Source: Parcubacteria group bacterium Gr01-1014_30 (lineage in GTDB: Bacteria; Patescibacteriota; Minisyncoccia; Minisyncoccales; 2-12-FULL-40-12). From it: a stretch of DNA of 64,000 bases. Shown in pieces: positions 6,617-63,901 of this stretch (the first letter of the stretch is position 1; every line of letters starts with the position of its first letter). The notes under the pieces are model-generated. The model had not been told where the DNA came from, did no database searches, and saw only the letters and a list, made by a program, of their open reading frames with translations. Made by a program: the position numbers and the translations under genes. Location: positions 2,198 through 66,197 of the forward strand of contig VMFS01000002.1 in assembly GCA_007376185.1 (NCBI GenBank), given 5' to 3'.

Positions 6617-6736
6617 AATCCGAAGCACGAAGCACGAAATCCGAAACAAATTCAAATAACCAAATGATAAAAATTCAAAACAACTGTTTAGAATTTTAGA
6701 AATTGGAATTTAGATATTGTTTCGAATTTCGAATTT
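6617..6736 (+). repeat. R-family AT-rich imperfect hairpin repeat, copy R1
   Basis: AAATCCGAAGCACGAAGCACGAAATCCGAAACAAATTC...TTGTTTCGAATTTCGAATTT fills the whole thpR-murC spacer. Related copies lie at 27841-28040 (inverted), 30515-30560, 58942-59134 and 59671-59804. Confidence 0.8.
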
Positions 6737-7987
6737 ATGAACATTCATTTCATCGGCATTGGAGGCATTGGCGTTTCTGCTTTGGCAAGGTACTACTTAC
6801 AAAAGGGCCATAAAATTACCGGCTCCGACTTGGTGTCCTCTGAAATTACCTCTTCTTTAGAGAAAAGCGGGGTAAAAATCAAAATAGGGATTCACAAAAA
6901 AAGAAACGTTCCCGGCAACACCGATTTGGTAATTTACAGCGAGGCGGTGCCTGAAGATAACGCCGAACTTAGAGAGGCAAAGAAGCTGAAAATCAAGCGG
7001 ATGAGCGGAGCAAAAGCACTAGGAGAATTGACTAAAAAATATTTTACAATTGCCGTTGCGGGAACGCACGGAAAGAGCACCACAACGGCCATGCTCGGCC
7101 TTGTTTTGGCGAAAGCCGGCTTTGACCCAACCGTGATTGTCGGCACAAAACTTAAAGAATTCAATGGCTCAAACTGCCGGGTAGGGAAGTCAAAGTATCT
7201 TGTTCTGGAGGCGGATGAGTACGGAGCCAAGTTCTTGAACTACCGGCCGAAAATGATTGTTTTAACCAACATTGACAAAGACCACCTGGATTACTATAAA
7301 ACCTTTGCGAACGTTAAAAGAGCTTTCAAGAAATTTATCGGAAATTTGCCAAAAGACGGAGTTTTCATCACCGAAAAGTCGGTAAAACAAAAAGATATAA
7401 AAAAGCTGAAAGGTTTGCTGAAAGTACCCGGAGAACATAATGCTTACAACGCGGCTTTGGCGTTGATAGCTGCCCGAGCACTGAAAATTCCCGACAAAGT
7501 TTCTCTTGGAGCATTGGCACAATACAAGGGTTCCTGGCGCCGCTTTGAAGAAAGGAATATCAAACTAGACGCTAAAAGCTATACGCTAATTAGTGACTAC
7601 GCTCACCATCCAACCGAGATTAAAGTTACCTTAAAAGCGGCTAGGGGAAAATATCCCAAAAAAAAGATTTGGTGTGTTTTTCAACCGCACCAGTACCAAA
7701 GGACTTATTATTTGTTTGACGATTTTGTCAAGGTTTTTCGTAAAGCGCCAATTGATAAATTGATGATTACCGATATTTACGATGTCGTAGGCAGAGAAGA
7801 AAATGAAATAAAGGCAAAAGTGAGTTCGGCAAAACTGGTTCAAAAGATAGGCCAAAGCCGCGCGCTTTATCTGCCGCAGGCCAAGATAATGGATTATCTA
7901 AAGAAGAACCTCCGCGGCGGCGAGGTTGTCATAGTTATGGGAGCAGGGGATATTTACAAAATCGCTGCGGCCTTGACAAAAGATTAG
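6737..7987 (+). CDS. murC: UDP-N-acetylmuramate--L-alanine ligase
   Basis: IHFIGIGGIGVSALA...GSD N-terminus and the P-loop AVAGTHGKSTTTAM. Confidence 0.9.
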   Translation: MNIHFIGIGGIGVSALARYYLQKGHKITGSDLVSSEITSSLEKSGVKIKIGIHKKRNVPGNTDLVIYSEAVPEDNAELREAKKLKIKRMSGAKALGELTKKYFTIAVAGTHGKSTTTAMLGLVLAKAGFDPTVIVGTKLKEFNGSNCRVGKSKYLVLEADEYGAKFLNYRPKMIVLTNIDKDHLDYYKTFANVKRAFKKFIGNLPKDGVFITEKSVKQKDIKKLKGLLKVPGEHNAYNAALALIAARALKIPDKVSLGALAQYKGSWRRFEERNIKLDAKSYTLISDYAHHPTEIKVTLKAARGKYPKKKIWCVFQPHQYQRTYYLFDDFVKVFRKAPIDKLMITDIYDVVGREENEIKAKVSSAKLVQKIGQSRALYLPQAKIMDYLKKNLRGGEVVIVMGAGDIYKIAAALTKD

Positions 7988-8001
7988 ATAGGATGTATAA
8001 T
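7973..8001 (+). promoter_or_regulatory. consensus sigma70-type promoter for the GC-rich island (TTGACA-17-TATAAT)
   Basis: TTGACA at 7973-7978 (inside the last murC codons), a 17-nt spacer, then TATAAT at 7996-8001. Downstream, the hairpin CTGCCCTAAGTGGGGCAG (8039-8056) abuts the SD AAAGGAGG. Confidence 0.6.
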
Positions 8002-8070
8002 TTGTTCATCTTAGGACATTGACATTTAAATACTGAAACTGCCCTAAGTGGGGCAGAAAGGAGGTCTCAA

Positions 8071-8862
8071 ATGAGACGCCTCGCAATCGTTGTGCTCGTG
8101 TTGGTCTCGGTCGCGACAGCTGTCGCGGCCCAAGAGATTACCGGCGAGTTTGTGGTGACAGGTTACCTCCCTGGAGAGTTTGCTGTGAGGGGAGAGGTTG
8201 AACGTCAACTTAACCAGCTGGTTGCGGAAATTAAAAAGAGATTGGAAAATGGCCAACTGCAAATTAGTGTTATCGGCTCTGCTGATGTTACAGGCAGTTC
8301 GCCAATCAATGACCGGCTTGCCCAGGATAGGGCAGGACAGGTTGCTGCTGTGTTGACTGCCAATTTCCCTGAGGCCAGGATAGTTGCTTGGTCAAGGGGG
8401 GATGCAGAGAATATTCGGCAAGTTAGGGTGGAATACAGGATTATTCCTCCGCAGGAAGAAGCTGAGGGTGTGTCTGTTGCAAAAGAGCCGAGCGCGAGTC
8501 CAAAAGCCATTATGCTTGTTGGAGCAGTAGTTCTACTTGCCGTGGTTTTGGCGATTTTGCTCTCCCGTAACATGCTGTACATGCTGTTGCGCGGTAGAGT
8601 AACAGCCCAGCCAGCCCAAGGACCGCGCTGGGTTGATGTGGAGGTCGGCGGTGTAAGTTATTCAGTGAAGATAGCGGTTTTTGACGGCGTATTTGTTTCT
8701 CCGTTTAGAACTAGAAATGGCTTCACGATTAGCCGCAAAAACTTTAGCGGCATTAAGAGCTCTCTGGCAGGGTGCCTGGAGGGGGAGGAATTTGCGTCTC
8801 AGAAACGGGATTTGATTGCTGAAGGCAAAATTATCGTGAAACAGGCCGTGAAAACGGCCTGA
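8071..8862 (+). CDS. island ORF1: signal peptide, OmpA/MotB-like peptidoglycan-binding domain, TM helix, unknown cytoplasmic tail
   Basis: MRRLAIVVLVLVSVATAVAAQ signal. ISVIGSADVTGSSPINDRLAQDRAGQVAAVL matches the OmpA_C pattern (GxTD..G....N..LS..RA..V). TM helix AIMLVGAVVLLAVVLAILL. SD AAAGGAGG. About 60% GC. Confidence 0.7.
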   Translation: MRRLAIVVLVLVSVATAVAAQEITGEFVVTGYLPGEFAVRGEVERQLNQLVAEIKKRLENGQLQISVIGSADVTGSSPINDRLAQDRAGQVAAVLTANFPEARIVAWSRGDAENIRQVRVEYRIIPPQEEAEGVSVAKEPSASPKAIMLVGAVVLLAVVLAILLSRNMLYMLLRGRVTAQPAQGPRWVDVEVGGVSYSVKIAVFDGVFVSPFRTRNGFTISRKNFSGIKSSLAGCLEGEEFASQKRDLIAEGKIIVKQAVKTA

Positions 8863-8876
8863 AAGGAGATGCGAAA

Positions 8877-9614
8877 ATGCCAAACTGGGAAACTCCTCGG
8901 CCCATAGCCGGGGGACTGTCGACACTCAGGGAGACAGCTAAGAAGCTGCGGCGGTTTTGGCCGCTTCTCGCAGCGCTTGGCGCTGTGTTGGTCTTTATTG
9001 GCGGATTCCTGCTTGGCGGAGCTGGCAAGAGCCAGCTCCGCACGCAATTGAGCAACAGGGATGCATTGCTTGAAGGCGTTGAGGCGGATCGAGATGCCTT
9101 GGCTAAGCAGCTGTCGGCTGCTGAAACCAAGTTAGTCGCGTTATCTACGTTAGCCGCACCAGCTCCGTCGGTCGCGGCACCAGTAGTGCCAGAGGCCGCG
9201 GTTGTGAAGCGAGGTGAAGGCATTGAGCATGTCCTGATTCGCCAGTTGGCCGCAAACCCCAAGAGTTTCGGCTTTGATGGCGATGCCGCGGACGCTTCCG
9301 TGGTGAGGCGGTGGGCCGGTGTTCGGGCTCATCAAATTGCGGTTTTGGCTGGCTACGTTGGTGCCAAGACCGGCAACGAGGTCCGCGTCAGAAGGGCGGA
9401 CAAAGCGGCTTATGTTCTTCAGGTTGACTCTGGCGGCAAGTTGTCTGTCGCCCAGTTTGAAAAGGGCGATGATGGCAACTGGCCGTCGCAGAGCCCGGCT
9501 GCGAGCTCAGGTCTGGTAAAGGTTGCGGCTGTTGATTACCAGTCAGTTACCTTCATTGGAGGAGCCACTTCTGCCGGCTTGCAAAGTTATGAGTACCTCT
9601 TTCAAAGAGCTTAA
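8877..9614 (+). CDS. island ORF2: N-in single-pass membrane protein with coiled coil and unknown C-terminal domain
   Basis: TM helix FWPLLAALGAVLVFIGGFLLGGA. Heptad-like region QLRTQLSNRDALLEGVEADRDALAKQLSAAETKL. Ala/Pro linker. SD AAAGGAG 8 nt upstream. Closely follows ORF1. Confidence 0.65.
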   Translation: MPNWETPRPIAGGLSTLRETAKKLRRFWPLLAALGAVLVFIGGFLLGGAGKSQLRTQLSNRDALLEGVEADRDALAKQLSAAETKLVALSTLAAPAPSVAAPVVPEAAVVKRGEGIEHVLIRQLAANPKSFGFDGDAADASVVRRWAGVRAHQIAVLAGYVGAKTGNEVRVRRADKAAYVLQVDSGGKLSVAQFEKGDDGNWPSQSPAASSGLVKVAAVDYQSVTFIGGATSAGLQSYEYLFQRA

Positions 9615-9683
9615 TTAAAACAAGGATTCCGTCCCTCTGAACAAAACGTTTTTTAAAGTTTTCTAAGACCTAACTCCTTTTTC

Positions 9684-9780
9684 TGTCAGGCAGCGCGGCC
9701 AAATGGCCGGCTGACAAAAGGTTCTCAAATGGGAACTCGCTCGTGATGCCAAATGGCATACGGGTCGCCAAAATGGCGCC
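9684..9780 (+). other. array of four short hairpins sharing a CCAAAUGG core (candidate 3'UTR element or small RNA)
   Basis: GGCCAAATGGCC (9697-9708, enclosed by TGTCAG/CTGACA), GTTCTCAAATGGGAAC (9721-9736), ATGCCAAATGGCAT (9746-9759) and CGCCAAAATGGCG (9766-9778). The outer stem pairs differ between copies but stay complementary. Confidence 0.4.
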
Positions 9781-9860
9781 TGAAACAGATAAAAGGATTA
9801 GAGCCGAAAAAAGCTGAAAAAAGCAGTAGTTTGGGAGAGGAGAGATCCATATTGTGTAAG

Positions 9861-10136
9861 GCCGCGTACTTTTGTACAGCGGCTTTATTTGTTATATAAT
9901 AGCCCTTGACAAGTATTCACATAGAGTGCTATAATAGTATATTGCACTTTTACAAAATTATAATTTTTATCTCCTGCTGATTGAGTATGGCTCTTAGAAA
10001 TTCCCCCGACCCCTGGCTTAAGACACCTTCGGTTTCTAAAGTGTTGACTTTTTGCACTGCGGAGGCATATTCTGTCAGCAGGAGATGACTCTCTATGCTG
10101 TAAGGCCGGCATGGCGCCGGCCTGGAAGGAGGAACC
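9861..10136 (+). promoter_or_regulatory. island regulatory module, copy 1: terminator, consensus promoter, palindrome over the -10, structured leader, SD
   Basis: Terminator hairpin GCCGCGTAC-TTTT-GTACAGCGGC plus a T-rich run (9861-9892). TTGACA 9906-9911, 18 nt, TATAAT 9930-9935. AGTGC...GCACT palindrome spanning the -10. A 10-bp stem CTCCTGCTGA (9971-9980) / TCAGCAGGAG (10075-10084). Hairpin GGCCGGCATGGCGCCGGCC, then AAGGAGG and the ATG at 10137. Paralogous to 11359-11561. Confidence 0.6.
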
Positions 10137-11294
10137 ATGCGAAGGTCACGGATAGCGTTGTTCTTTACGCTTACGGCACTCGTTGCTGTGAGCAACCCTG
10201 CGCCAATCGCGGCGCAGACTCAGCCGTCTTACACGGTTCAGCAGGGCGACACGCTCTACGAGCTGGTGGGGATTTACAGCTCCGATCAGCCTGAGATGCG
10301 CGCTCTTGTCATCCTCAATCCGTTCCTTGCGGAGGAAGGAAGGATGTTTAGGGACAAGCAAGGACGTTTTATCGTCCGCATCAGACCCGACGAGATCATT
10401 GAAGGAATTGAACGGCTCAACCTCGCTGTGGAGCCGGTTCCGATCACCGAGCTCTCGCCCACGCCGACACCTTTGTCGGCTGCGGAGGAGCAAGGGGAGG
10501 CCCTCGTCGCCGAAACCGAAGCCGGCTTCAACTGGCTTTGGCTGCTTTACGCGCTTGGCGGACTCGTCGCGCTCTATTTGATTCTCCGGAATTTGCTCGA
10601 GTCGCGGCGGCCGAACCTGCCCTTACTCAGGCAGTTTAACCCCGCGCTTACGGCGAACCCGGTGACTGCCGCGCCGCCGATGCGGCGGGGCGGCATCCTT
10701 TACACCGACCACTTGAGTATCCGGCGCCAACTTGTGGAGCAGGCGGCGCGTCGCCATACGGAGGTCCACGGCTTTATGCCGAGCTTGGATGACATCCGGA
10801 TCGTGGGCGACATAACCCGCGGGCGTCTCTACGACGTTTGGGAAACGCGTGACGCGAACGGTCGCTGGACACCACGACGTTACAACGGCGAGCCGGGGTA
10901 CCAAGCCATGGTGTCTGTGAACGACGGTGAGCCAGGGCTCACCACGTTTTCACAGGGTTGTGCGAACGATCTGCGTTTGGGTGCTCGCTACCGCGGCGGG
11001 CGCTTCGTGCCAGACACGGAGGTTCAGCCCATTCCGGCCGAACCGCCCGAACCGGCACCCACGCGTTCAACGCCCTTCGCGGTGCCCATGACGGCGCGCG
11101 CGACGAGCGAGCAGGTACTCGCCGTTATCGGTGGCTTGAGGATTATGCTTCCGGCCGGCTCCATAATCCGCACCGGAGACGACGGTGAGATTACTCTCAC
11201 CGTGACCGGTCCCTGTGACATCAGGATTGGTCAATGGGCCAAGAAAACGGCGCGGCCAAAGGTGGTTCGCGCCGCGAGTGGCGAGACTCAGTAG
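10137..11294 (+). CDS. island ORF3: signal peptide, LysM domain, TM helix, ~230-aa unknown cytoplasmic domain
   Basis: Signal MRRSRIALFFTLTALVAVSNPAPIAAQ. LysM-like YTVQQGDTLYELVGIY. TM helix WLWLLYALGGLVALYLIL. SD AAGGAGG. About 60% GC. Confidence 0.7.
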   Translation: MRRSRIALFFTLTALVAVSNPAPIAAQTQPSYTVQQGDTLYELVGIYSSDQPEMRALVILNPFLAEEGRMFRDKQGRFIVRIRPDEIIEGIERLNLAVEPVPITELSPTPTPLSAAEEQGEALVAETEAGFNWLWLLYALGGLVALYLILRNLLESRRPNLPLLRQFNPALTANPVTAAPPMRRGGILYTDHLSIRRQLVEQAARRHTEVHGFMPSLDDIRIVGDITRGRLYDVWETRDANGRWTPRRYNGEPGYQAMVSVNDGEPGLTTFSQGCANDLRLGARYRGGRFVPDTEVQPIPAEPPEPAPTRSTPFAVPMTARATSEQVLAVIGGLRIMLPAGSIIRTGDDGEITLTVTGPCDIRIGQWAKKTARPKVVRAASGETQ

Positions 11295-11310
11295 AGAGTA
11301 TTTGTTACAA

Positions 11311-11344
11311 GGAGGCAGCGAAGAGATAATTCTTCGCTGCCTCC
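11311..11344 (+). terminator. 14-bp perfect hairpin after island ORF3 (no U-run)
   Basis: GGAGGCAGCGAAGAG-ATAATT-CTTCGCTGCCTCC. Confidence 0.4.
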
Positions 11345-11358
11345 AACCTCAAACTATG

Positions 11359-11561
11359 ACCGCGTATTTCAGCGGTTTTTTGTTGGGCTAGCTATTGACA
11401 AATACTGGCATATAGTGCAGTAATAATATACTGCACTTTTACAATATTATAGTTCTTACCTCCTGCTGATTGAGTTTGGTTCTTGAAGAGGCAGATTCTG
11501 TCAGCAGGAGATGACTCTCTGCGAATAGGTCGGCATAGTGCCGGCCTACCAAGGAGGAACC
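11359..11561 (+). promoter_or_regulatory. island regulatory module, copy 2
   Basis: Terminator ACCGC-GTATTTCA-GCGGT plus TTTTTTG (11359-11382). TTGACA 11395-11400. Perfect palindrome AGTGCAGTA-N6-TACTGCACT over the -10 region. Stem CTCCTGCTGA (11460-11469) / TCAGCAGGAG (11501-11510). Hairpin GGTCGGCATAGTGCCGGCC, then AAGGAGG and the ATG at 11562. Confidence 0.6.
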
Positions 11562-12038
11562 ATGCCGACAGAAGAAGAGCGCGTAGTCAAGTGGATTATT
11601 ATTCTGTCAGTGATCGCGTTGATTGCATCGCTTGTGCTCGGGTGCTGGGTGGATGATATCTCGGCGCAGACTACGTCTGCGCAGGCTCTACAGATTGGCA
11701 TTGAGGGTCAGCTGCAGGATTTAGAGTCATACGGTTTTGGCAAGTCGACCTCAGGCTCTCAGAATTGCGGGAAGTACTTTCTTTACTACCCGCCTCCGCC
11801 GTCCGGCGATAAGGTTGGCTTACTTTTACTCGTTTCCATTTCAGGCGAAGGAAGCAATAGGCGTGTATCTGTGGTTCCGTGGGGAACGGACAAGTTCCGG
11901 ATTCGTGTGGTGCGAGGGCTCATAGTACCGACACTAAAGCTTTTGCGGATGGGTGGTCAAGTCTATCCTTGGGCGGAGATTTCGATCTCACCTGAGGACC
12001 TAAAGTTGGCCCCCTGCCTGTCGGCTGTGAACCGCTGA
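11562..12038 (+). CDS. island ORF4: small N-terminally anchored exported hypothetical protein
   Basis: ATG 7 nt after AAGGAGG (internal to ORF 11538..12038). TM helix WIIILSVIALIASLVLGCW. No recognisable domain. Confidence 0.6.
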   Translation: MPTEEERVVKWIIILSVIALIASLVLGCWVDDISAQTTSAQALQIGIEGQLQDLESYGFGKSTSGSQNCGKYFLYYPPPPSGDKVGLLLLVSISGEGSNRRVSVVPWGTDKFRIRVVRGLIVPTLKLLRMGGQVYPWAEISISPEDLKLAPCLSAVNR

Positions 12039-12067
12039 AGCGGTAATGGGGAGTTTGTTTACAAGAG

Positions 12068-12089
12068 GGCGTGCAACATTTTGCGCGCC
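12068..12089 (+). terminator. hairpin terminator at the right edge of the island
   Basis: GGCGTGCAA-CATT-TTGCGCGCC followed by TTAATT. Preceded by GAGTTTGTTTACAAGAGGG, which resembles the GAGTATTTGTTACAAGGAGG found after ORF3. Confidence 0.45.
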
Positions 12090-12132
12090 TTAATTATTGA
12101 TATTTTTAAGGAAAGTAGTAGAATAAATAATC

Positions 12133-13515
12133 ATGCAGCGAGTTTTAAATAGTGAGACGCAACAACTTATAGATCAAAAAGTCAAGGTTGCTGGCTGGGT
12201 TAATTCAAGAAGAGACCACGGGAAACTTGTCTTTTTGGACCTTAGAGACCGTTCGGGAATCTTGCAGGTTGTTTGTTCCTCGGAGTTGGCTAAAGACGTT
12301 AAAGACGAGTTTGTTTTGGAGGTGGAAGGAGTCGTTCAGGAGAGGCCGAAAGCAATGATAAACCCGGCTTTGAAAACAGGGGAGATAGAGCTGAAAGCCG
12401 AAAAAGTTAGCGTTTTGGCAAAAGCCGATTCCTTGCCCTTTGATTTGAAGGAATTAAACTTATCTCTGCCCACGCTTTTGGACTGGCGGCCTTTAACTTT
12501 ACGAAATCCTAAAGTCAAAGCAATTTTTAAGGTTCAAGAGCAGGTTGTGGAAAGTTTCAGGCGAGCTCTGAAAGAAATGGATTTTACGGAATTCCAGCCG
12601 CCGACAATAGTTGCTTCGGCCACAGAAGGGGGAGCCGAACTTTTTCCAATTCAATACTATAAATACAAGGCGTATTTGGCTCAAAGCCCTCAGCTTTACA
12701 AGCAAATTTTAGTTGGCGTTTTTGAAAGAGTCTTCGCCGTAACCAAAGCGTATAGAGCAGAACCCAGTGTTACCACGCGCCACATTTCAGAATACATCAG
12801 TTTGGACGCCGAGATGGGTTTTATAAATGCGTGGGAAGAGCTAATGGACACCTGTGCAATTGTAGTAAAAAAAATTTTCTACGACCTCCAAAAAAGTTGT
12901 CAGGAAGAACTGAAAATGTTTAACGTTGATTTACGTGAGGTCGGCGAAAACATACCTCGTTTGAAAATAAGCCAAGCCCAGCGGATTATTTTTGAGAGAA
13001 CGGGCAGAGATAACACAAATGTGCCCGATTTAACTCCTGAAGATGAGAGAGAGATTTGTCAATTCGCAAAAGAAAAGCACGAATCCGAGCTTATTTTTAT
13101 CACACATTTTCCGACAAAAAAGCGGCCTTTTTACACTCAACCGGATCCTGATGGTTCTGACTATACTTTAAGCTTTGATTTGTTGTTCCGCGGGGTAGAG
13201 ATAGTAACAGGAGGTCAACGGATACACGAGTACGAAAAATTATTGAAAAACATAAAAAAATTCGGTTTTTCGCAAGGCGCATTCAAGTTTTATCTGCAAG
13301 CATTTCAATACGGCATGCCGCCAGAAGGCGGATTTTGCATGGGAGCTGAAAGAATGACAAAGCAGATTTTAGGTCTGGAAAACGTAAAAGAAGCAGGGCT
13401 GTTTCCACGTGACATGGAAAGAATTGACCAGAGATTGTCAGCATCCTTGCAAAAAGAAACAAAGAAACCACGCGCCAAAAGGCGCGTTCTCAAAAGACGC
13501 AAGAAGAAAAAATAG
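12133..13515 (+). CDS. aspS: aspartyl-tRNA synthetase (short archaeal/type-2 form) with polybasic C-terminal tail
   Basis: OB-fold N-terminus GKLVFLDLRDRSGILQVV. Class II motifs YRAEPSVTTRHISEY, GGQRIHEYE and MPPEGGFCMGAERM. Tail KKPRAKRRVLKRRKKKK. Confidence 0.85.
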   Translation: MQRVLNSETQQLIDQKVKVAGWVNSRRDHGKLVFLDLRDRSGILQVVCSSELAKDVKDEFVLEVEGVVQERPKAMINPALKTGEIELKAEKVSVLAKADSLPFDLKELNLSLPTLLDWRPLTLRNPKVKAIFKVQEQVVESFRRALKEMDFTEFQPPTIVASATEGGAELFPIQYYKYKAYLAQSPQLYKQILVGVFERVFAVTKAYRAEPSVTTRHISEYISLDAEMGFINAWEELMDTCAIVVKKIFYDLQKSCQEELKMFNVDLREVGENIPRLKISQAQRIIFERTGRDNTNVPDLTPEDEREICQFAKEKHESELIFITHFPTKKRPFYTQPDPDGSDYTLSFDLLFRGVEIVTGGQRIHEYEKLLKNIKKFGFSQGAFKFYLQAFQYGMPPEGGFCMGAERMTKQILGLENVKEAGLFPRDMERIDQRLSASLQKETKKPRAKRRVLKRRKKKK

Positions 13516-25276: not shown

Positions 25277-25395
25277 GAGCGAAGAGAACTTCGTTCTCTT
25301 CTTTACCTTCACTTCCTACGGAAGTTTGGTGAGCGAAGAGAACTTCGTTCTCTTCTTTACCTTCACTTCCTACGGAAGTTTGGTGAGCGAAGCGA
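25277..25395 (+). repeat. 54-bp tandem repeat (about 2.2 copies) of the S-family double-hairpin element
   Basis: The unit GAGCGAAGAGAACTTCGTTCTCTTCTTTACCTTCACTTCCTACGGAAGTTTGGT starts at 25277 and 25331, with a partial third copy at 25385. Flanked by further hairpins GGGAGAACT..AGTTCTCCC and TTAGAAACC-GCG-GGTTTCTAA. Confidence 0.85.
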
Positions 25396-25466
25396 GCGTT
25401 AGAAACCGCGGGTTTCTAAAGAGCGGCGTAGTGCAACGAGCCGCGACTGATTATATATTACCACTT

Positions 25467-25739
25467 ATGGCTAAGACGAAAGCCGCAGGAGCCACAAAAT
25501 TAGGCCGGGATTCTCTGCCAAAATACTTGGGGATAAAACTAGCTGAAGGGCAAAAAGCCAGAATTGGCCAGATTTTAGTTCGCCAACGAGGAACAAAATT
25601 TCTTGCCGGAAAGAACGTTGCCAGAGCAGGAGACGATACCTTGTATGCGTCAAAGGAAGGGGTTGTTCGTTTTGGAACACGTAGAAAAACACGGTTTGAC
25701 GGATCTCAGCGCCGTGTAAAAATTGTTAACGTAGAATAG
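25467..25739 (+). CDS. rpmA: 50S ribosomal protein L27
   Basis: MAKTKAAGATKLGRDSLPKYLGIK...RQRGTKF..G.NV. Internal ATG of ORF 25326..25739. Confidence 0.9.
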   Translation: MAKTKAAGATKLGRDSLPKYLGIKLAEGQKARIGQILVRQRGTKFLAGKNVARAGDDTLYASKEGVVRFGTRRKTRFDGSQRRVKIVNVE

Positions 25740-27388: not shown

Positions 27389-27835
27389 TTACTTTTCTTC
27401 AACAACGATTATTTTTACGTCTGCTTCCAAGTTGTGGTTAAACTTAATTTTAATCGGGAACTCGCCAAGTTCCTTGATGGGAGAGGCTAGAATAATTTGG
27501 CTTTTTTTTATTTCAAAGCCGAGCTCTCCAAGTTTATCTGCAACTCTCTGAGCCGAGATGGATTCAAACAACTGCCCTTCCTGCCCAACTTTAACTGCTA
27601 TGGCAATTTCCTGGCCGTCAATCTTTGAAGCCAGGCCTTGAATTGCTTTCAGTTCCTCCTCGGACTTCGCAACTTCAATCTCTTGCTGGGCATTCACCCA
27701 TTTTAAGGCCTGCTTGGTTGAGGGTTTTGCCAGCCCTTGAGGGAACAAAAAATTCCTGGCATAGCCCGCCTTGACTTCTTTGATATCATACTTCTTGCCT
27801 AATTTATCTACGTCTTGAAGAAGGATAACCCGCAT
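27389..27835 (-). CDS. rplI: 50S ribosomal protein L9
   Basis: [36 protein letters not shown]. Confidence 0.9.
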
Positions 27836-27840
27836 GAAAT

Positions 27841-28040
27841 TTTAATTAAATTCGAAATTCTAATATCGAAATTCGAAACACTATCTAAATTCTAATTTTC
27901 TAAATTCAAAACGTTTTGGAAGGTCGCTGAGGGCTTCGCCCTCCTCTCACGCCTCGTTCAGCTTTGCTAAACTTCGGCTTTAGAATTTTGGTCATTGGGA
28001 TTTGTTTTGGATTTCGTGCTTCGTGCTTCGGATTTTTTAA
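27841..28040 (-). repeat. R-family AT-rich hairpin repeat, copy R2, carrying an S-family double hairpin (27921-27979) in its centre
   Basis: AAATTCGAAATTC...TTGGATTTCGTGCTTCGTGCTTCGGATTT is the inverted orientation of R1. The central insert is AGGTCGCTGAGGGCTTCGCCCTCCTCTCACGCCTCGTTCAGCTTTGCTAAACTTCGGC. Confidence 0.8.
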
Positions 28041-37578: not shown

Positions 37579-37605
37579 TTAGCAGTCAAGGCCTAAGAGT
37601 GATAA
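37579..37605. promoter_or_regulatory. CIRCE operator (HrcA binding site)
   Basis: TTAGCAGTC-N9-GAGTGATAA compared with the consensus TTAGCACTC-N9-GAGTGCTAA (2 mismatches). Lies about 30 nt upstream of the hrcA start. Confidence 0.75.
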
Positions 37606-55385: not shown

Positions 55386-55497
55386 GTAAGAGACCTACCT
55401 ACTTTCTCGGGAAAACCCAATATCATCGGCCTTGAGAGATTTCACTTCTGTGTTCGGAATGGGAACAGGTGGAGCACTCTCGGTATAGGCCTCTTAC
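55386..55497 (-). rRNA. 5S ribosomal RNA
   Basis: The reverse complement reads GTAAGAGGCC...CACCTGTTCCCATTCCGAACACAGAAGTGAAATCTCTCAAGGCCGATGA...GGTCTCTTAC. Helix I closes the molecule. Confidence 0.85.
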
Positions 55498-55553: not shown

Positions 55554-55779
55554 GAAAATTGCGCGGATTTATTAGTACCGCTTCTCTCAACTGATTACTC
55601 AGCTTACAAGTGCGGCCTATCAACCTCATCATCTCTGAGGAATCCATAGAATCTTCATCTTGGGGTGGGCTTCGAGCTTAGATGCTTTCAGCTCTTATCC
55701 CTTCCTAACATAGCTACCCAGCAATGCTCCTGGCGGAACAGCTGGCACACCAGAGGTTAGTTCACTCCGGTCCTCTCGT

Positions 55780-56217
55780 CAAGTTAATCTTATATTTCTA
55801 TAAGCTTAGACTATATCTTCACCGAATACATAGCATTATGTGTTCGGGTCAACGTATTATGGTAGCTTTATAAACCTACCATCTATTCCAGAATTGGAAT
55901 AAGTCGTTACGGGGACAAACTATAGCTGCAAAATTTCTCTTAAATCTGGCGGAGTATCACTTCTTCTTTTCAGCTGAATCATAATACTCCCATCGCCATC
56001 TAGAAAACCAGCGATATACGCGAAATCAGTAGATTTTGCCTTGGTTTGTCTTCCCACGGTATCGCCTTAATAATTATCCGGTCCTCAAGTAAATTATACC
56101 ACACATTATTTGGACCGCAAATATACTGTGGTCATTGCAACCGGATAACTAATGAAGGTTTCACCGTTATTAGTTGAGTTGTCATCATGGATTGCTCCAT
56201 GAAGTAGCAATTTCCTT
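55780..56217 (-). mobile_element. group I intron in the sarcin-ricin loop (after the U of AGU|ACGAGAGGACC)
   Basis: The exons join to GCTCTTAGT|ACGAGAGGACCGG. Exon 1 ends in U and the intron ends in G. The intron carries GGTGAAGATATAGTCTAA (J8/7-P7-like) and CCCCGTAACGACT. Confidence 0.75.
55920..56057 (-). pseudogene. 45-codon remnant of a LAGLIDADG homing endonuclease inside the intron
   Basis: The minus-strand translation is VGRQTKAKSTDFAYIAGFLDGDGSIMIQLKRRSDTPPDLREILQL*. It has one LAGLIDADG motif and is far shorter than functional enzymes. Confidence 0.7.
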
Positions 56218-56257
56218 ACTAAGAGCAACTCCCCTCAAGATTCTAAACGCCTGCGGT

Positions 56258-56288
<31 letters not shown>

Positions 56289-56348
56289 GAACCCAGCTCA
56301 CGTACCACTTTAATTGGCGAACAGCCAAACCCTTGGGAGCTTCTCCAC

Positions 56349-56381
<33 letters not shown>

Positions 56382-56425
56382 GAACAGGGCCGTTGATGTG
56401 GACTCGCGGGCCCTACTAGCCTGTT

Positions 56426-56856
56426 CAATCCTTTTTTTGGATTAGACTATATCTTCACCGAGCGCGTAAATACCTTATGCGCTCGGGACGGCGTATTATG
56501 ACGGGTAATGTTCACCGCCATATCGGTCAAAAGACCTCAGTCGTTACGGGGTCAAATCTAAAATTACTTTGGCCCAATTAATCTATCTAAGTAAAACTCA
56601 TTCACTTGATATTTAATAGAATGAATTTCATTCCTAATTATTATTAATTGCCAAAGGCAAAGAAATAAAATTAAGAGAATAATTATTTTAAACCAATTTT
56701 GTTTTATGTAATTCACAATTTTAGATCGACTTCCCACGGTGTTGGAAGAACTCAAAACCTTTTAATAAAGGAAGACCAGTTCTTATTTCACCGTTATAAG
56801 CCGTACATTTCACGCATTACTGCGTGATTGGACAACAAACTCTTTTTTCAGAGTTT
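56426..56856 (-). mobile_element. group I intron at the L2449 site of the peptidyl-transferase centre
   Basis: The exons join to CCCCGGGGAT|AACAGGCTAGTAG (E. coli GGGGAU|AACAGGCUGAUA). U before and G at the end of the intron. It shares the 3' core with the other intron (CCCCGTAACGACT...ATAATACG...TCGGTGAAGATATAGTCTAA). The interior is AT-rich. Confidence 0.75.
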
Positions 56857-57418
56857 ATCCCCGGGGTAACTTTTGGCTGATGATCTTTGCCGGTCCTACC
56901 AACCAGCATCGGTTCACTAAGTTCCGCTTTCGCGACAGCTCGACATATCCGTCTCGCTGTAAAGCCGGCTTGTGCCTTTGCGCGACCAGTCCGATTTCCA
57001 TCCGGACATAGCCGACCTTATAAACGCCTCCGTTACTCTTTTGGAGGCAAGCGCCCCACTTAAACTGACCGCCACCCACTGTTTTCCTTGCGGAATTAGT
57101 CCTACCATTTTAAAAGACGGGTGTTTCATTGGCGGCTCCATTGGGTCCGAAAACCCAACTTCAAAGCCTACCCGCTACGCTACGCATCCAAAGTAATAAG
57201 ACAATGGAAAGCTACAGTAAAGCTCCCGGGGTCTTTCCGTCTAGCCGCAGGTAACCGGCATCTTTACCGGTATTGCATTTTCACCGGGCGCCTCGTTGAG
57301 ACAGTTCCCCAGTCGTTAAGCCTTTCATGCGGGACAGAACTTACCTGTCAAGGGATTACGCTACTTTAACACGGTCAGAGTTACCGCGGACGTTCACTCG
57401 TGGCTTAACTCGCTCAGC

Positions 57419-57515
57419 CCCCGCTCTCTAAGCTCTATATATTCTGTAATTACTCAGACAAACAACATAGTGTTTGCCCAAATTTCTACATTCACATACA
57501 GCATAGAGAGCGGGG
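57419..57515 (+). repeat. TIR-bounded 97-nt insertion A in 23S (helix 68 tip region)
   Basis: CCCCGCTCTCTAAGCTC...CAGCATAGAGAGCGGGG, with 12-bp terminal inverted repeats and an AT-rich interior. Confidence 0.8.
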
Positions 57516-57630
57516 ACCGGCAAGGATAACACACAAGCACTGGTCAGGCCTCAGCCCCTATACATCCTCTTACGAGTTTAGCAGGGACCTGTGTTTTAGG
57601 TAAACAGTCGCCAGGGACACTTTCGCTGCG

Positions 57631-57731
57631 CCCCGCCCTCTATGCCCGTCGTCATTTTTTTCTCACAATACTTTTTCAGTTGTAGAATTTCAAAACGAAT
57701 TAATCTATGACTACGAGCTTAGAGGGCGGGG
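57631..57731 (-). repeat. TIR-bounded 101-nt insertion B in 23S (helix 63 variable region), flipped relative to A and C
   Basis: CCCCGCCCTCTATGCCC...GAGCTTAGAGGGCGGGG. The CTATGC and CTAAGC ends are swapped compared with A and C. Confidence 0.8.
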
Positions 57732-58206
57732 AAGGCATATTGCGAACTTACGCCTGCTTTTTTGCCGAGTTCCTTAACGAGGTTTCACCCGTTCACCTTG
57801 GTCTGCTCGACCTGCCCACCTGTGTCGGTTTGCGGTACGGATTCCGCGTTTTTAACTTAGCAAGGTTTTTCTTGGAAGAATTTTCTATTAAGTTGTCTCA
57901 GACGTAACCGAAACTCCCCTTTCAGAAGAGAATCCAATAACTCTCTCAATATCCAATTCTCCGTCGCCTTGCCAAAAAAGCGCAGAAGGGCCGGAATATT
58001 AACCGGCTGTCCATCCCCTAAACCCTTTCGGGGTCGGGTTAGGCCCGCCTAACCCTTGGCTGATTGACATTGCCAAGGAAACCTCGGGCTTTCGGTGTCC
58101 AGGGATCTCACCTGGATTGTGGTTACTCATGCCAACATTCTCACTTCGCAGCGCTCCACCCCGACTCGCGTCGTGGGCTTCACTGCACTGCAAACGCTCC
58201 CCTACC

Positions 58207-58305
58207 CCCCGCCCTCTAAGCCGTATGTTCAAGGTAGCCAGAATTTATCAACTGTTAATAGTTTGATATTTCGATTACCTAAAATACACAGCATAGAGGG
58301 CGGGG
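58207..58305 (+). repeat. TIR-bounded 99-nt insertion C in 23S helix 45 (classic IVS site)
   Basis: CCCCGCCCTCTAAGCCG...CAGCATAGAGGGCGGGG replaces the helix following GCTCCCCTACC. Confidence 0.8.
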
Positions 58306-58941
58306 TCTTGTCTTCGGTACTGAGTTTTAGTCCCGTAAATCTTTGGCGCAGAACTCCTTAGTTAGTAAGCTGTTACGCACTTTTTAAAGGATAGCTGCTT
58401 CTAAGCTAACCTCCTAACTATCAGAGGTGCTCCACTTCCTTGAGTACACTTAACTCAAATTTTGGGACCTTAGACAAAGATCGTGGGCTTTTTCCCTTTT
58501 GAGCTTGGACCTTAGCGCCCAAGTTCTGACTCCCCGCAAAACGTTTGGTATTCGGAGTTTGGTAAGAGTACCTACCGTAAGGCACGATATTCTTTCCAGT
58601 GCTCTACCCCCAAACGTTATTTGTCGCGGGGGCTAGCCCTAAAGCTATTTCGGGGAGAACCAGCTATTACCAAGCTCGATTAGCTTTTCACTTCTTGCCA
58701 CAAGTCATCCGAGAGTATTGCACGGCTCACCGGTTCGGGCCTCCTCAAAGATTTCTCTTTGACTCACCCTGCTCATGGCAAGCTCGCTTGGCTTCGGGTC
58801 TTACGCGTACCACTTTTTTTCGCGCTGTTAACACTTGGTTTCCCTTTGTCTGCTCCCTAAAGGGGATTAGACAGCGGCACGCATAAAGTCGTTGGCTCAT
58901 TCTTCAATAGGCACCCCGTCGCACCTCGCTAACGCTCGGTG

Positions 58942-59134
58942 CCCCCAAATCCGAAATTCGACCACAGCCCATTTCCAATGGGCTGGGTCGCCCAGCCCTT
59001 TAGTAAGGGCTGTGGCGAAATTCGAAATCCTAAACAATATCAAAATTCAAAATCCAAATGACCAAAATTTTGTTTCTGTTTTGAATTTTGGGTTTTGGAT
59101 TTGTTTCGTATTTAGGATTTCGTGCTTCGGATTT
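58942..59134. repeat. R-family repeat copy R4 plus a GC-rich cloverleaf-like module, inserted in 23S helix 25 (classic IVS site)
   Basis: AAATCCGAAATTCG, then CCACAGCCC...GGGCTGTGG, then CGAAATTCGAAATCCTAAACAATATCAAAATTC...TTGGATTTGTTTCGTATTTAGGATTTCGTGCTTCGGATTT. Flanked by the helix-25 stem ACGCTCAGTG/CACCGAGCGT (RNA sense). Confidence 0.75.
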
Positions 59135-59670
59135 ACGAGGAACACTGAGCGTCAGCGAAATGTTCCGAGTCCTTGTGGGCATGATGGTTTCAGGTTCTAT
59201 TTCACCGGGGTCAACCCCCTACTTTTCACCTTTCCCTCACGGTACTGGTTCACTATCGGTGAGATTGAGTATTTAGCCTTTCCGCGTAGTCGCGGATGCT
59301 TCCCGCAGGGTTGTCTTTTCCCGCGGTACTAAAGAAAAATATCAAGGAGCATAAAGTCGTTTTCATCTACGGGACTATTACCCTCTATGGTTGCCCTTTC
59401 CAGGGTCATTTAATTAACGAAACTTTACCTAAGTGCTCTCCCTCAGAAGTTTTTGTCTTAAGAACAAAAGCTCCTGACAATATTTCCTTACAACCCCAAG
59501 CATAAAAATACTTGGTTTTGGCTTCTCCCTGTTCGCTCGCCGCTACTGAGGGAATAATCCTTCGACATGCTCAGGATTACCCTGAACTTGTTGAAGGGTA
59601 ACTGTGTTTTCTTTTCCTCCGCTTACTGAGATGTTTCACTTCAGCGGGTACGCCACCGCGCTCTGCAGCG

Positions 59671-59804
59671 GAAGCACGAAATCCTAAATACGAAGCACGA
59701 AACAAATCCTAAATTCAAAATTATAATGTCCAAAACGTGTTTTGAATTTTGGTCATTTGGATTTTGATACTGTTTCGAATTTCGATATTCGAGTTTCGAA
59801 TTTC
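59671..59804. repeat. R-family repeat copy R5 inserted in the 5' domain of 23S (helix 9/10 variable region)
   Basis: GAAGCACGAAATCCTAAATACGAAGCACGAAACAAATCC...TTGGTCATTTGGATTTTGATACTGTTTCGAATTTCGATATTCGAGTTTCGAATTTC. Confidence 0.75.
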
Positions 59805-59971
59805 CGGTGCAAAGCACGGCTTGCCGCGTTTTGCACGGCAGGGTTTCCCCATTCGGACATCCCCGGTTCTAAGGTTGGTAGCCACCTCCCCGAGGCTTAT
59901 CGCAGGCACCCCACGTCCTTCATCGCCTCAATCTCCCAAGGCATCCTCCATCTGCCCTTAAAAATGCAATT

Positions 59972-61339: not shown

Positions 61340-62908
61340 TTATCTCAATAAGTTCAAAAACGGAGCGGCAAGCCATGCCGTCAGCCGTTGGAAGAAACCT
61401 GTCGGCCCTTCTTGTTGCTGCTGTTGCTGGTATTGCTTCTCGAATTGTTGCCGGTATTGCTCTTCAAACTGTTGTTGAAATTCCTCTTTATGCTCTTCTG
61501 GGAACTGTTGAAATTCGCTGGGTGGCGGCATTGTTGGCGGTTGAAATTGGCCGCATTCTTCCGGATGTTGCTGGCAATACGCCATGCATTCTTCCTGGCT
61601 TTTACAGCCGCCGGGACCTGTAAAGCCAGACGGTATTCCTTCAGGGGGAGCAAACCCTTCTGGTGGGAAAGAACCTTCTTCTCCTGGCCGCGGTCCAAAT
61701 TCTTCCGGAGACGGCATAAATTGTTCAAAACATTCGCGCATAACATCGCCCATATGAGGAGCTACAGTGCCGCTTCCTGTCCTTATTCCTTCTATAACTT
61801 CAGGTCCTAATTTCCCTTCCAAGCATGAGGCAATTTCAGGTGGCGCGTTGGAAAGGCCTTCTCGCATCATGCGCAATCCCTCTTCCATCTGACGCATGTC
61901 TTGGTCAGAAAGCAGACCATGCTCTTTGGCAAAATCAAAGCAGGTTTCTTGATTTGCGGGATTCTGGCAGAATTGTTCGCATTCCTGCTGGCCTTGGCAG
62001 TCGCCAGGCCCCTTTCCGCCTGTTTTACGGGCCATCTCAGCTTCCTCTGGCGTCATAAATCCGGCAGCTTCCGCAAAAACAATGCACTCTTGAATATGCT
62101 CTTCCTGCGAGCAGTAGACATTGCATTCTTCCTCGCTTTGGCAGGCAGGCGGCTTTACTCCTTTTCTGAGGGCTGTCAGCATTTTTTCGGCATCCTGAAG
62201 CTCTTGGTCCGACATCAATCCCGCCTCCTTGGCAAAGCTAATGCACACCTCAAAGTTTTCTGACTGCCGACAATAGGCCTCGCACGCCTCCTTGCCTCCT
62301 GCTCCCATGCAAGGGGGCGGCGTTACTCCTCTTTTGATTGCGGCCAGAACTTTTTTTGCTTCTTCCAGCTCGTCAGGGGGAATGAACCCCGCAGATTCAG
62401 CAAACGCTATACACTCTTCCATGTGATTTGATGAAGTGCAGTAGGCCTCGCATGCCTGCTTATTTCGGCACCCGCCCGGCAGTTGAGCGCCTCTGGCTAA
62501 AGCGGCTTGAATTTTTTTAGCCTCCTTAAGTTCGTCAGGTTCTATAAAACCGCTCCTTTCAGCAAAGGTTAGGCATTCTGAAATGTTGTTGATATCGTTG
62601 CAGTAGTTTTCGCATTCAAGGTGATTTGAGCAGCCGCCGGGGCCTGAGCCGCCCAGCTCAAGAAATTTTTTCGCTCTGGCTAACTCTTCAGCTGAAAGCA
62701 AATTATGTCTTTCTGCAAAGGCAAGGCACTTAGCGATATTAGCGGGAGAGTCGCAATATACTTTGCACTCCTGCTCGCTTTTACAATTGCCCAACTCTGG
62801 CACCGGAAAAACTATGTCGTCTTTTGAAGTAGCGTAAACGACTATACCAATACCCAAAAGCAGGACCGTGACAACAAATATTTTATTCAAATGGATTTTT
62901 ATAAACAT
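61340..62908 (-). CDS. anchored secreted protein with 6.5 tandem 4-Cys repeat modules and a Q-rich tail
   Basis: The repeat C-x5-6-C-x3-C-x9-10-C-x2-FAE-x2-G-[LF]-x4-5-[ED]-[LM]-x2-A-x-K occurs seven times. Tail QQQFEEQYRQQFEKQYQQQQQQE. Confidence 0.7.
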   Translation of the reverse strand: MFIKIHLNKIFVVTVLLLGIGIVVYATSKDDIVFPVPELGNCKSEQECKVYCDSPANIAKCLAFAERHNLLSAEELARAKKFLELGGSGPGGCSNHLECENYCNDINNISECLTFAERSGFIEPDELKEAKKIQAALARGAQLPGGCRNKQACEAYCTSSNHMEECIAFAESAGFIPPDELEEAKKVLAAIKRGVTPPPCMGAGGKEACEAYCRQSENFEVCISFAKEAGLMSDQELQDAEKMLTALRKGVKPPACQSEEECNVYCSQEEHIQECIVFAEAAGFMTPEEAEMARKTGGKGPGDCQGQQECEQFCQNPANQETCFDFAKEHGLLSDQDMRQMEEGLRMMREGLSNAPPEIASCLEGKLGPEVIEGIRTGSGTVAPHMGDVMRECFEQFMPSPEEFGPRPGEEGSFPPEGFAPPEGIPSGFTGPGGCKSQEECMAYCQQHPEECGQFQPPTMPPPSEFQQFPEEHKEEFQQQFEEQYRQQFEKQYQQQQQQEGPTGFFQRLTAWLAAPFLNLLR

Positions 62909-63155: not shown

Positions 63156-63194
63156 ATTGTTATATTATCGCTTACTGCCTAAATACATGTCAAG

Positions 63195-63262
63195 CCCCGT
63201 ATATCATCTTCTGACGCCTGCGGCGATTTCGCGCGAAGCGCGCCGAAAGTTGTATTACGGGG
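63195..63262. repeat. Y-family structured repeat, copy Y2
   Basis: CCCCGTATATCATCTTCTGACGCCTGCGGCGATTTCGCGCGAAGCGCGCCGAAAGTTGTATTACGGGG. Confidence 0.75.
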
Positions 63263-63780: not shown

Positions 63781-63901
63781 ACCTTTCTTAATTTTTATTT
63801 CTCAATTAATTCTTCGACCTTATTTTTCGCCTGTTCCAAGAATTGTTTTGCCCCAGTAGCAGAACAAGTTCGCTACGGGGTAAACTTTTGAGCGGGCTTC
63901 G

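Follow-up and report, generated by a model that had tools for sequence, protein, structure and literature searches.

Do two neighbouring but unrelated envelope-protein genes share one regulatory design, and if so, of what kind? The question is raised by a 64-kb stretch of contig VMFS01000002.1 (hereafter the window, meaning the whole stretch analysed) from Parcubacteria group bacterium Gr01-1014_30, a metagenome-assembled genome from groundwater. Two paralogous non-coding cassettes sit there in a GC-rich island of ~8000-12100 that holds four envelope-protein genes, here called open reading frames (ORFs) 1 to 4; one cassette copy precedes ORF3 and the other precedes ORF4. ORF4 is unrelated to ORF3, yet the same leader stands in front of both. 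To our knowledge, gene regulation in bacteria of the Candidate Phyla Radiation is almost unstudied, and these organisms cannot be grown alone.

The best reading of the locus is a composite one, namely a lineage-specific co-regulation cassette made of a promoter, an operator-like dyad and a leader with a double-stranded RNA (dsRNA) stem, to which we assign a probability of about 0.5. That the two copies represent a real duplicated promoter-leader cassette can be stated with high confidence.

The duplicated cassette

Copy 1 of the cassette spans 9858-10139 and copy 2 spans 11356-11564. Both present the same parts in the same order: a terminator hairpin, the hexamer TTGACA, a 24-bp dyad over the -10 region, an AU-rich stretch, a long stem (P1), the segment ATGACTCTCT, a small GC hairpin (P3) and AAGGAGGAACCATG, which contains the Shine-Dalgarno (SD) sequence and the start codon. 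Aligned with MAFFT from the terminator hairpin to ATGC (9855-10145 versus 11350-11570), the copies agree at 79% of the columns, and a repeat finder independently reported both blocks (D3, 96 nt at 82%; D19, 33 nt at 97%). An earlier sequence-only reading of this DNA had taken the two regions for paralogous regulatory modules, which these results bear out, and every sequence feature it had listed was found where it had been placed. In a motif search allowing up to three mismatches, each of three diagnostic sub-motifs occurred exactly twice in the window, with 0-0.09 occurrences expected by chance: the palindrome AGTGCNNTA-N6-TANNGCACT (9925-9948 and 11414-11437; 0.08 expected), TCAGCAGGAGATGACTCTCT (10075-10094 and 11501-11520; 0 expected) and GCACTTTTACAAWATTATA (9944-9962 and 11433-11451).

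Promoters and the overlapping dyad

The DNA part of the cassette comprises, in each copy, a promoter and a dyad that lies over it:

9906-9935, plus strand: copy 1 promoter of sigma-70 type (TTGACA 9906-9911, 18-nt spacer, TG 9927-9928, TATAAT 9930-9935)
11395-11432, plus strand: copy 2 promoter region (TTGACA 11395-11400, 18 nt, TGC-AGTAAT 11419-11424)
9925-9948, no strand assigned: copy 1 dyad AGTGCTATA-N6-TATTGCACT, 8/9 symmetric, spanning the -10 and the predicted start
11414-11437, no strand assigned: copy 2 dyad AGTGCAGTA-N6-TACTGCACT, perfect

Judged by consensus match, hexamers and spacing are of sigma-70 type. The copy 1 promoter agrees with the consensus at 12 of 12 positions and adds a TG extension, a match to the consensus only, with a start that is predicted. 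In copy 2 the -35 is perfect and the -10 in the same register is degenerate (AGTAAT), while an alternative promoter, CTGGCA-16-TATACT (11405-11432), overlaps it and places its TATACT 8 nt downstream. The TTGACA of both copies, the TATAAT of copy 1 and the palindrome, perfect in copy 2 and imperfect in copy 1, are all as the sequence-only reading had described them. Promoter-like sites are frequent throughout the island (11 versus 2.5 expected).

Perfect dyads of 9-N6-9 form, when centred on the -10 and the start, have a geometry that is classic for repressor operators. The dyad found here has this 9-N6-9 form and covers the -10 and the predicted start, as is typical of operators for dimeric repressors of the helix-turn-helix type. 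From its sequence, an operator for a DNA-binding factor is plausible, although we would put the chance slightly below even. The suggestion that the repressor itself is not encoded in the island agrees with searches of Pfam, NCBIfam and PHROGs, in which none of the four island proteins showed a DNA-binding domain.

One position of the dyad is changed symmetrically between the copies, from A·T to G·C, and as a result the -10 hexamer of copy 2 lacks its second-position A (-11A). Since the symmetric change was kept at this cost, symmetry was seemingly favoured over promoter strength, which seems to fit an operator and a hairpin equally. The dyad might act as RNA, as a hairpin followed by UUUU that serves as a second weak terminator or insulator against read-through, or as a hairpin selected for another role. 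The conserved UUUUACAA follows it directly, the copy 2 hairpin reaches -12.4 kcal/mol, and a symmetric, pairing-preserving change at the expense of -11A is what a hairpin constraint predicts. However, the U-run has just 4 nt, and the hairpin with UUUU would make only a weak terminator; copy 1 contains a U·U mismatch and falls to -7.8 kcal/mol; a terminator lies only ~30 nt upstream; and the geometry is that of an operator. We therefore consider the hairpin an improbable account of the dyad.

Structure of the leader RNA

The predicted leaders are ~195 nt (copy 1) and ~130 nt (copy 2) long and share a layout of an AU-rich single strand, a 22-bp G·U-containing P1 with a variable apex, ATGACTCTCT, the GC hairpin P3 and a strong SD:

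9944-9968, plus strand: copy 1 AU-rich 5' stretch GCACTTTTACAAAATTATAATTTTT, conserved, predicted single-stranded
11433-11458, plus strand: copy 2 AU-rich 5' stretch
9969-10086, plus strand: copy 1 P1, its lower 22 bp common to copy 2, with a 63-nt branched apex insertion at ~9999-10061
11459-11511, plus strand: copy 2 P1, 11 + 7 + 4 bp with a 3-nt loop
10085-10094, plus strand: copy 1 ATGACTCTCT, whose predicted partners in helix P2 are the SD (UCUCU:GGAGG) and the start region's CAU
11511-11520, plus strand: copy 2 ATGACTCTCT, 5' strand of P2
10103-10123, plus strand: copy 1 P3, AGGCCGGC-AUGGC-GCCGGCCU, ending 2 nt 5' of the SD
11527-11547, plus strand: copy 2 P3, AGGUCGGC-AUAGU-GCCGGCCU
10126-10139, plus strand: copy 1 SD and start codon AAGGAGGAACCATG, ORF3
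11551-11564, plus strand: copy 2 SD and start codon AAGGAGGAACCATG, ORF4

P1 consists of ~22 bp (11 + 7 + 3-4 bp) interrupted by two 1x1 mismatches, and the real difference between the copies is the 63-nt indel at its apex. It had earlier been described as a perfect 10-bp stem with loops of 31 and 94 nt; these figures are correct as distances between the arms, but they do not measure a loop, the stem continuing to ~22 bp. Similarly, the small hairpin P3 had been credited with a compensating G-U change, of which the C-to-U substitution is present but one-sided (G-C to G·U) instead of double. A true double change, from A-U to U·G, occurs in P1.

Three lines of evidence argue for a leader fold beyond chance. 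The first is stability: against dinucleotide shuffles, the two leaders have z-scores of -4.1 and -4.5, and the RNAalifold consensus fold contains 37 pairs, all of which can form in both copies. The second is strand asymmetry: P1 folds at -47.3 kcal/mol on the plus strand versus -38.2 on the minus strand in copy 1, and at -32.8 versus -19.8 in copy 2, so that it is 9-13 kcal/mol more stable in plus-strand RNA because of the G·U pairs in its upper half. The third is the placement of substitutions, which affect 4 of 74 paired columns versus 15 of 57 unpaired ones (Fisher p = 0.001); all four stem substitutions preserve pairing, and length differences are confined to loops or the P1 apex. The structural claim rests on these three observations, since covariation from two sequences is uninformative.

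The same features bear on two further explanations of the leader. It could be a small-molecule riboswitch, for instance a relative of lysM-associated motifs or of the c-di-AMP riboswitches found ahead of cell-wall genes, a thought encouraged by an N-terminal segment of ORF3 that looks LysM-like by eye (Pfam does not call LysM) and by the structured candidate RNA motifs that occur upstream of lysM genes in TM7, Actinobacteria and Prevotella (PMC5737381). The leader, however, consists of two simple hairpins and lacks both a multi-stem junction and conserved internal loops, its P1 apex differs by 63 nt between copies, and the unrelated ORF4 has the same leader. Rfam 15 at the gathering threshold matched only 23S, 5S and one tRNA in the whole window, and even at E<=10 the region 7900-12200 gave three weak matches, all to unrelated families and all outside the modules. 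The sequence-only reading had already held a small-molecule aptamer to be unlikely from the variable apex, and the lack of an Rfam match agrees with it; a riboswitch is very improbable indeed.

Alternatively, P1 might be a mobile insertion present in both leaders, either a miniature inverted-repeat transposable element (MITE) or an integron attC-like recombination site. It has inverted arms of 10-25 nt, a centre of variable length and totals of 51 and 114 nt, and its length range and single-base mismatches superficially recall attC sites. Yet other copies are absent from the 64 kb, from other loci and from three public collections, the arms CTCCTGCTGATTGAGT and ATTCTGTCAGCAGGAG have neither a flanking target-site duplication nor the GTTRRRY/RYYYAAC core, and the upper stem, which relies on G·U pairs, falls apart on the minus strand. 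The element also lies in a leader downstream of a promoter instead of at a cassette 3' end, and no integrase or transposase was found in the island with Pfam, NCBIfam and PHROGs. The miniature inverted-repeat insertion that had been floated as a possibility is thus hardly credible, given the missing third copy and the strand preference of P1.

Two other candidates were tried and rejected. For a conserved upstream ORF, AGGAG and AUG adjoin with no spacer and the frames differ between copies; for a template/variable repeat pair of a diversity-generating retroelement, the differences are not adenine-specific and a reverse transcriptase is missing.

Accessibility of the SD and the proposed switch

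The true SD is paired both in the minimum-energy fold and in the consensus fold: its GGAGG joins the UCUCU of ATGACTCTCT, the start region's CAU joins the AUG of that segment, and the resulting helix P2 encloses P3. The sequence-only reading had instead envisaged a translational switch in which the CUCCU of the P1 5' arm alternates between a decoy AGGAG and the true SD and thereby controls whether ORF3 and ORF4 are translated. Four alternately complementary elements (CUCCU, AGGAG, UCUCU and AGGAGG) do exist in both copies, and an alternative fold that joins the 5' arm to the SD and the decoy to UCUCU is reachable. When the alternative pairing energies were compared, however, this fold was disfavoured in both copies: if the CUCCU of the 5' arm is made to pair with the true SD, the penalty is +4.7 kcal/mol in copy 2 and +10.1 kcal/mol in copy 1, and the fold offers no ON state, because the SD is still paired. 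Moreover, P1 forms first during transcription and alone is worth -31 to -44 kcal/mol, and a conserved core of the kind that binds ligands is absent, the apex being variable.

The energies needed to open the SDs are ordinary. In the predicted leader folds the SD is mostly paired, with an unpaired probability of 0.02-0.3, but its opening energy is 2.0 kcal/mol for ORF3 and 4.2 kcal/mol for ORF4 versus 4.3-6.6 kcal/mol in four other SD-bearing genes of the window, a baseline that is too small to form a distribution, with 6 of 49 window genes carrying an SD. Since ORF3 and ORF4 are at the low end of the range of 2.0-6.6 kcal/mol and not above the other genes, there is no computational sign of special SD sequestration. 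The switch as envisaged from the sequence is very unlikely.

A weaker effect appears if the RNA is cut at the P1 3' arm. In the model, opening the SD then costs 1.15 instead of 2.5 kcal/mol in copy 1 and 2.2 instead of 4.2 kcal/mol in copy 2, and the decoy pairs with UCUCU in a hairpin that has 10 bp in copy 1 and 7 bp in copy 2. As predicted by these folds, the exchange of partners between decoy and UCUCU is real but small. It could operate as a factor-dependent relay of four segments (anti-SD1, decoy SD, anti-SD2 and SD), in which RNase III or a dsRNA-binding protein removes or holds the P1 5' arm, whereupon the decoy captures UCUCU and frees the SD; it might also act jointly with the neighbouring structured element X and its four C-AAAU-G hairpins, described below. 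We give little credence to post-transcriptional control of the envelope genes by such a relay; if true, it would mean coordinated control of SD-dependent envelope genes in a host whose genes almost all lack an SD.

Terminators, relatives and the age of the parts

Each cassette copy begins with a terminator:

9858-9893, plus strand: T1a, intrinsic-terminator-like hairpin GGCCGCGUAC/GUACAGCGGCC with a UUUAUUUGUU tail, -17.1 kcal/mol
11356-11386, plus strand: T1b, terminator-like hairpin GACCGC/GCGGUU with a UUUUUUGUUG tail, -9.4 kcal/mol

T1a closes the ORF1-ORF2-X unit and T1b closes the ORF3 unit; both stand after stop codons and combine a GC-rich hairpin with a U-run at the end of a unit, as intrinsic terminators do. 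Between the two, a double change from G-C to A-U occurs at the hairpin base.

Relatives of the locus fall into two groups. Homologs of ORF3 at 39-47% identity (contigs L001, L003 and L004) and the one homolog of ORF4, at 49% identity (L007), lie in other contexts, those of the ORF3 homologs being of Parcubacteria type, and have non-homologous leaders; each leader of an ORF3 homolog, though unrelated, pairs a TTGACA promoter with stable hairpins. A closer relative is represented by three short Logan contigs. In L016 and L017, homologs of ORF1 and ORF2 are succeeded by a conserved structured region and then by a T1-type terminator, which in L016 is a U-run-bearing ortholog of T1a at the same place. 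L018 contains an ORF3 homolog, with the gene's 3' end, a 14-bp hairpin and the terminator ~85% identical to the window; its T1b ortholog is nearly identical. At both terminators, the homology that can be aligned ends right after the T-run.

Sequence after the terminator in these relatives reads TTGC(T/C)ATTTTTGG... (TTGCTA-17-TAAAAT in L016), and the promoter-leader part of the window cannot be aligned to the 33-70 nt available there. The contigs begin exactly at AAGGAGGA and end at a shared TTGCYATTTTTGG, and the relatives' own leaders would lie between TTGCYATTTTTGG... and ...AAGGAGGACATATG, where the contigs break. These breaks fit those that repeats induce in assembly, which hints that the relative may have a duplicated promoter-leader of its own. 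The L018 protein, P0004, looks mosaic in comparison with window 10137-11294: its termini, 3' untranslated region (UTR) hairpin and terminator resemble those of ORF3, and its central part resembles P0005, the ORF3 homolog of L004, which suggests, on sequence grounds, that members of the gene family have recombined.

T1a and T1b are each nearer to their own orthologs than to each other, and the module therefore appears to consist of two layers: terminators that are, by sequence comparison, old and conserved with the upstream genes, and a promoter-leader pair that looks lineage-specific. This layering also bears on a plainer explanation, that an ordinary intergenic region was recently duplicated or homogenised by gene conversion and carries generic hairpins of messenger RNA ends with no specific shared regulation. 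Two copies are known, the promoter-leader has no orthologous conservation in the relatives, identical tracts of 26 and 16 nt adjoin strongly diverged ones, and the relatives' contigs break here as they would at repeats homogenised within each genome. Against this, the divergence is non-random with respect to structure at the significance given above, all stem changes preserve pairing and the indel falls exactly at the apex. Any conversion tract would have to exclude the terminators, each being nearer to its own ortholog, and only regulatory DNA was copied and kept, as the flanking genes are not paralogs. Plain duplication or gene conversion is an unlikely account.

A proposed mode of co-regulation

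In the composite reading, the shared promoter and dyad would subject ORF3 and ORF4 to a single trans-acting DNA-binding factor encoded elsewhere. P1, with two helical turns of strand-specific dsRNA, would be a determinant of processing or stability, as a substrate of RNase III type or as a site for a dsRNA-binding protein. With 21-22 pairs and two 1x1 mismatches in both copies, it has the length expected of RNase III substrates (~20 bp or more of mostly continuous dsRNA); on the modelled fold, RNase III-type processing of P1 is possible but doubtful. After cleavage, P3 at the new 5' end beside the SD would act as a stabiliser, while loss of the P1 5' arm would allow the decoy AGGAG to trap the UCUCU box and modestly loosen the SD. 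Such a cassette would be neither a ligand sensor nor a self-contained thermodynamic SD switch, and its promoter-leader pair may be kept alike by selection for co-regulation or by gene conversion.

Several results weigh against this reading. Run over the window and eight other loci, a covariance model of the two leaders (R1) recovered just those two copies; the 48.7 kb of contig downstream of the window and the genome's further contigs lay outside the search. Scans with exact words across GTDB genomes, JGI metagenomes and IMG/VR gave chance matches only: TGTCAGCAGGAGATGACTCTCT had no match in GTDB representative genomes; CTCCTGCTGATTGAGTWTGG had four GTDB matches, all in coding sequence of unrelated phyla and lacking the 3' arm; TCAGCAGGAGATGACTCTCT had no match in IMG/VR and one chance match in JGI metagenomes, inside a coding region. 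A blastn search of 9600-10140 against phages and plasmids returned nothing. The TTGACA promoter and the dyad are absent from the 33-70 nt after the terminator in L016 and L018 and hence have no orthologous support. Among the 20 window proteins scanned, neither a candidate repressor nor an RNase III (rnc) gene was identified. Covariation carries no information with two copies, the single double change being equalled in 265 of 500 shuffles, and the block-wise identity could partly reflect gene-conversion tracts instead of purifying selection. Finally, the ordinary SD opening energies of ORF3 and ORF4 leave room, in silico, for only weak control of translation through P2.

The cassette so far comprises two copies in one metagenome-assembled genome, and each of its parts resembles a known type of signal: promoters with overlapping operators, terminators, RNase III-processed leaders, SD-complementary boxes and 5' stabiliser hairpins. 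Its value is limited on both counts. The locus is nevertheless a compact example of two unrelated envelope-protein genes wired to the same promoter, dyad and leader, and it offers testable parts in the dyad, the 22-bp dsRNA stem and the SD-complementary box.

The island and its genes

The island has a GC content of 50-60% versus ~43% around it and is inserted between murC (6737-7987) and an aspartyl/asparaginyl-tRNA synthetase-like gene (12133-13515), in a neighbourhood of cell-wall and division genes. It contains:

8071-8862: ORF1, with an OmpA-like peptidoglycan-binding domain
8877-9614: ORF2, no family assignment
10137-11294: ORF3, no family assignment
11562-12038: ORF4, no family assignment
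11311-11344, plus strand: perfect 14-bp hairpin in the ORF3 3' region, -28.9 kcal/mol, kept in L018

All four proteins have N-terminal hydrophobic segments, and the OmpA-like domain of ORF1 is the only family match among them in Pfam, NCBIfam and PHROGs. All four genes carry a canonical SD (AAGGAGG or AAAGGAG) 5-8 nt 5' of the ATG, whereas a GGAG-like motif of any kind was seen in only ~2 of the 38 host genes that were inspected; upstream of most host starts the sequence is AT-rich, and in some cases a -10-like hexamer adjoins the ATG. Strong SDs are also found on homologs of the island genes in other contigs. This marked difference in SD content between the genes of the island and those of the host may prove more useful than the cassette itself.

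Element X and other structured RNAs

One structured element adjoins the module and lies outside the duplicated unit:

9615-9857, plus strand: element X, a structured RNA of ~245 nt in the ORF2 3' region, directly upstream of T1a

X is predicted to form a long imperfect outer stem that closes a multiloop with four small hairpins, the inner hairpins having C-AAAU-G, AAUU or AAUA loops on different stems. The plus strand folds at -89 kcal/mol (z = -6.3, or -7.45 with T1), and the minus strand is weaker at -77.4 kcal/mol. The element is kept downstream of the ORF2 homolog in L016 (2027-2250) and L017 (1027-1250), with compensatory double changes at 14 of 57 consensus pairs versus 0-2 in slid controls. 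It matched no Rfam family in the E<=10 scan of 7900-12200, and neither X nor the ORF3 3' hairpin found anything in the IMG/VR scans. As a candidate for a new RNA class, X is probably stronger than the module, and, being conserved, strongly covarying and outside any Rfam family, it may likewise prove more useful than the cassette.

Hairpins of the same type recur in the ORF1 leader of L016 (115-235), where three stand in tandem with the form CC-AAUN-GG (GGGCAAUUGCCC, UGCCCAAUCGGGCA and GUGUCCAAUAGGACA). The ORF1 leader had also been said to place a hairpin directly against its SD, and both in the window (8002-8070) and in L016 a hairpin ending in CAG indeed abuts AAAGGAG, the stem sequences being different. 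In L004, the ORF3 homolog P0005 is preceded by a ~660-nt leader (7345-8000; 666 nt) with z = -10, in which a perfect stem of 22 bp (GCGCAGCGAACUGGGGCC...) is accompanied by a second hairpin reusing CAGCGAAYUG; the leader has no Rfam match.

Other observations in the window

The 23S rRNA gene (55555-59971, minus strand) measures 4417 nt versus 2925 nt in the model, implying insertions of ~1.5 kb; a 5S gene lies at 55386-55496, and no 16S gene is adjacent to the 23S. An AT-rich intergenic repeat family with units like AAATTCGAAATTCTAA or TTTAGAATTTTGG occurs at 6685-6732, 27835-28035, 59018-59134 and 59684-59803 and flanks both sides of the 23S 5' end; L014, a contig of the same organism in a different assembly, stops just short of this family's first copy. 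A 54-nt unit is perfectly duplicated in tandem at 25277-25384 (D8), immediately upstream of and overlapping the start of an ORF at 25326-25739. Near the window end, two GC-rich copies of ~70 nt, 97% identical and 706-707 nt apart, are found at 63194-63262 and 63901-63968 (D17 and D18) with a TTTCGCGCGAAGCGCGCCGAAA palindrome. An ORF of 522 amino acids (61340-62908, minus strand) contains internal repeats of ~35-39 nt (GCATTCTTCCTGGC...) at irregular spacings of 144-642 nt, and its 347-amino-acid neighbour has Kazal and Gmad2 domains.

Comparison with known systems

At the DNA level, the closest comparison is the CIRCE operator of HrcA (TTAGCACTC-N9-GAGTGCTAA). Like it, the module dyad carries GAGTGC/GCACT at a promoter, and hrcA lies in the same window, HrcA being the sole regulator among the 20 proteins scanned. 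The half-sites of the module are, however, everted (GAGTGC outside, TA inside) and spaced as 9-N6-9, and the dyad is therefore not CIRCE. With up to three mismatches allowed, a CIRCE search of the window found only the canonical site TTAGCAGTC-N9-GAGTGATAA at 37579-37605, in the divergent promoter region adjoining hrcA-grpE-dnaJ.

At the RNA level, the four segments CUCCU, AGGAG, UCUCU and AGGAGG can pair as 1:2 with 3:4, or as 2:3, in the manner of trp-type attenuators. The module differs in that its 1:2 helix is ~25-35 kcal/mol stronger than 2:3, no conserved leader peptide is present (MTLCE* in copy 2, an open frame in copy 1), no terminator follows, and switching would need an external factor that removes segment 1. 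With SD-sequestering leaders and RNA thermometers such as ROSE and fourU, the module shares the weak, G·U-containing pairing of UCUCU with GGAGG, but P2 is identical in both copies and so shows no covariation, the SD opening energy is not elevated, and the module has no Rfam match to ROSE, fourU or other thermometers. The GC hairpin immediately 5' of the SD recalls the 5' stabiliser hairpins of Gram-positive messenger RNAs.

RNase III-processed leaders (phage T7 R sites, lambda N, and E. coli rnc, pnp and adhE) resemble the module in more respects: P1 is an imperfect 5' UTR dsRNA of ~22 bp with single-base mismatches, its apex is variable and dispensable, and the ribosome-binding region is predicted to rearrange when the arm is lost. 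P1 nonetheless has no sequence relation to the described sites and is known here from its predicted fold, and the effect on the SD is small in silico, at 1.3-2 kcal/mol. The lysM-associated motifs (PMC5737381) differ from the module in that it has no Rfam 15 match at E<=10, that ORF3 is not a LysM protein by Pfam and that the leader also serves ORF4; as structured 5' UTRs in front of cell-wall-binding genes, including those of a phylum of the Candidate Phyla Radiation, they are nevertheless its nearest thematic precedent.

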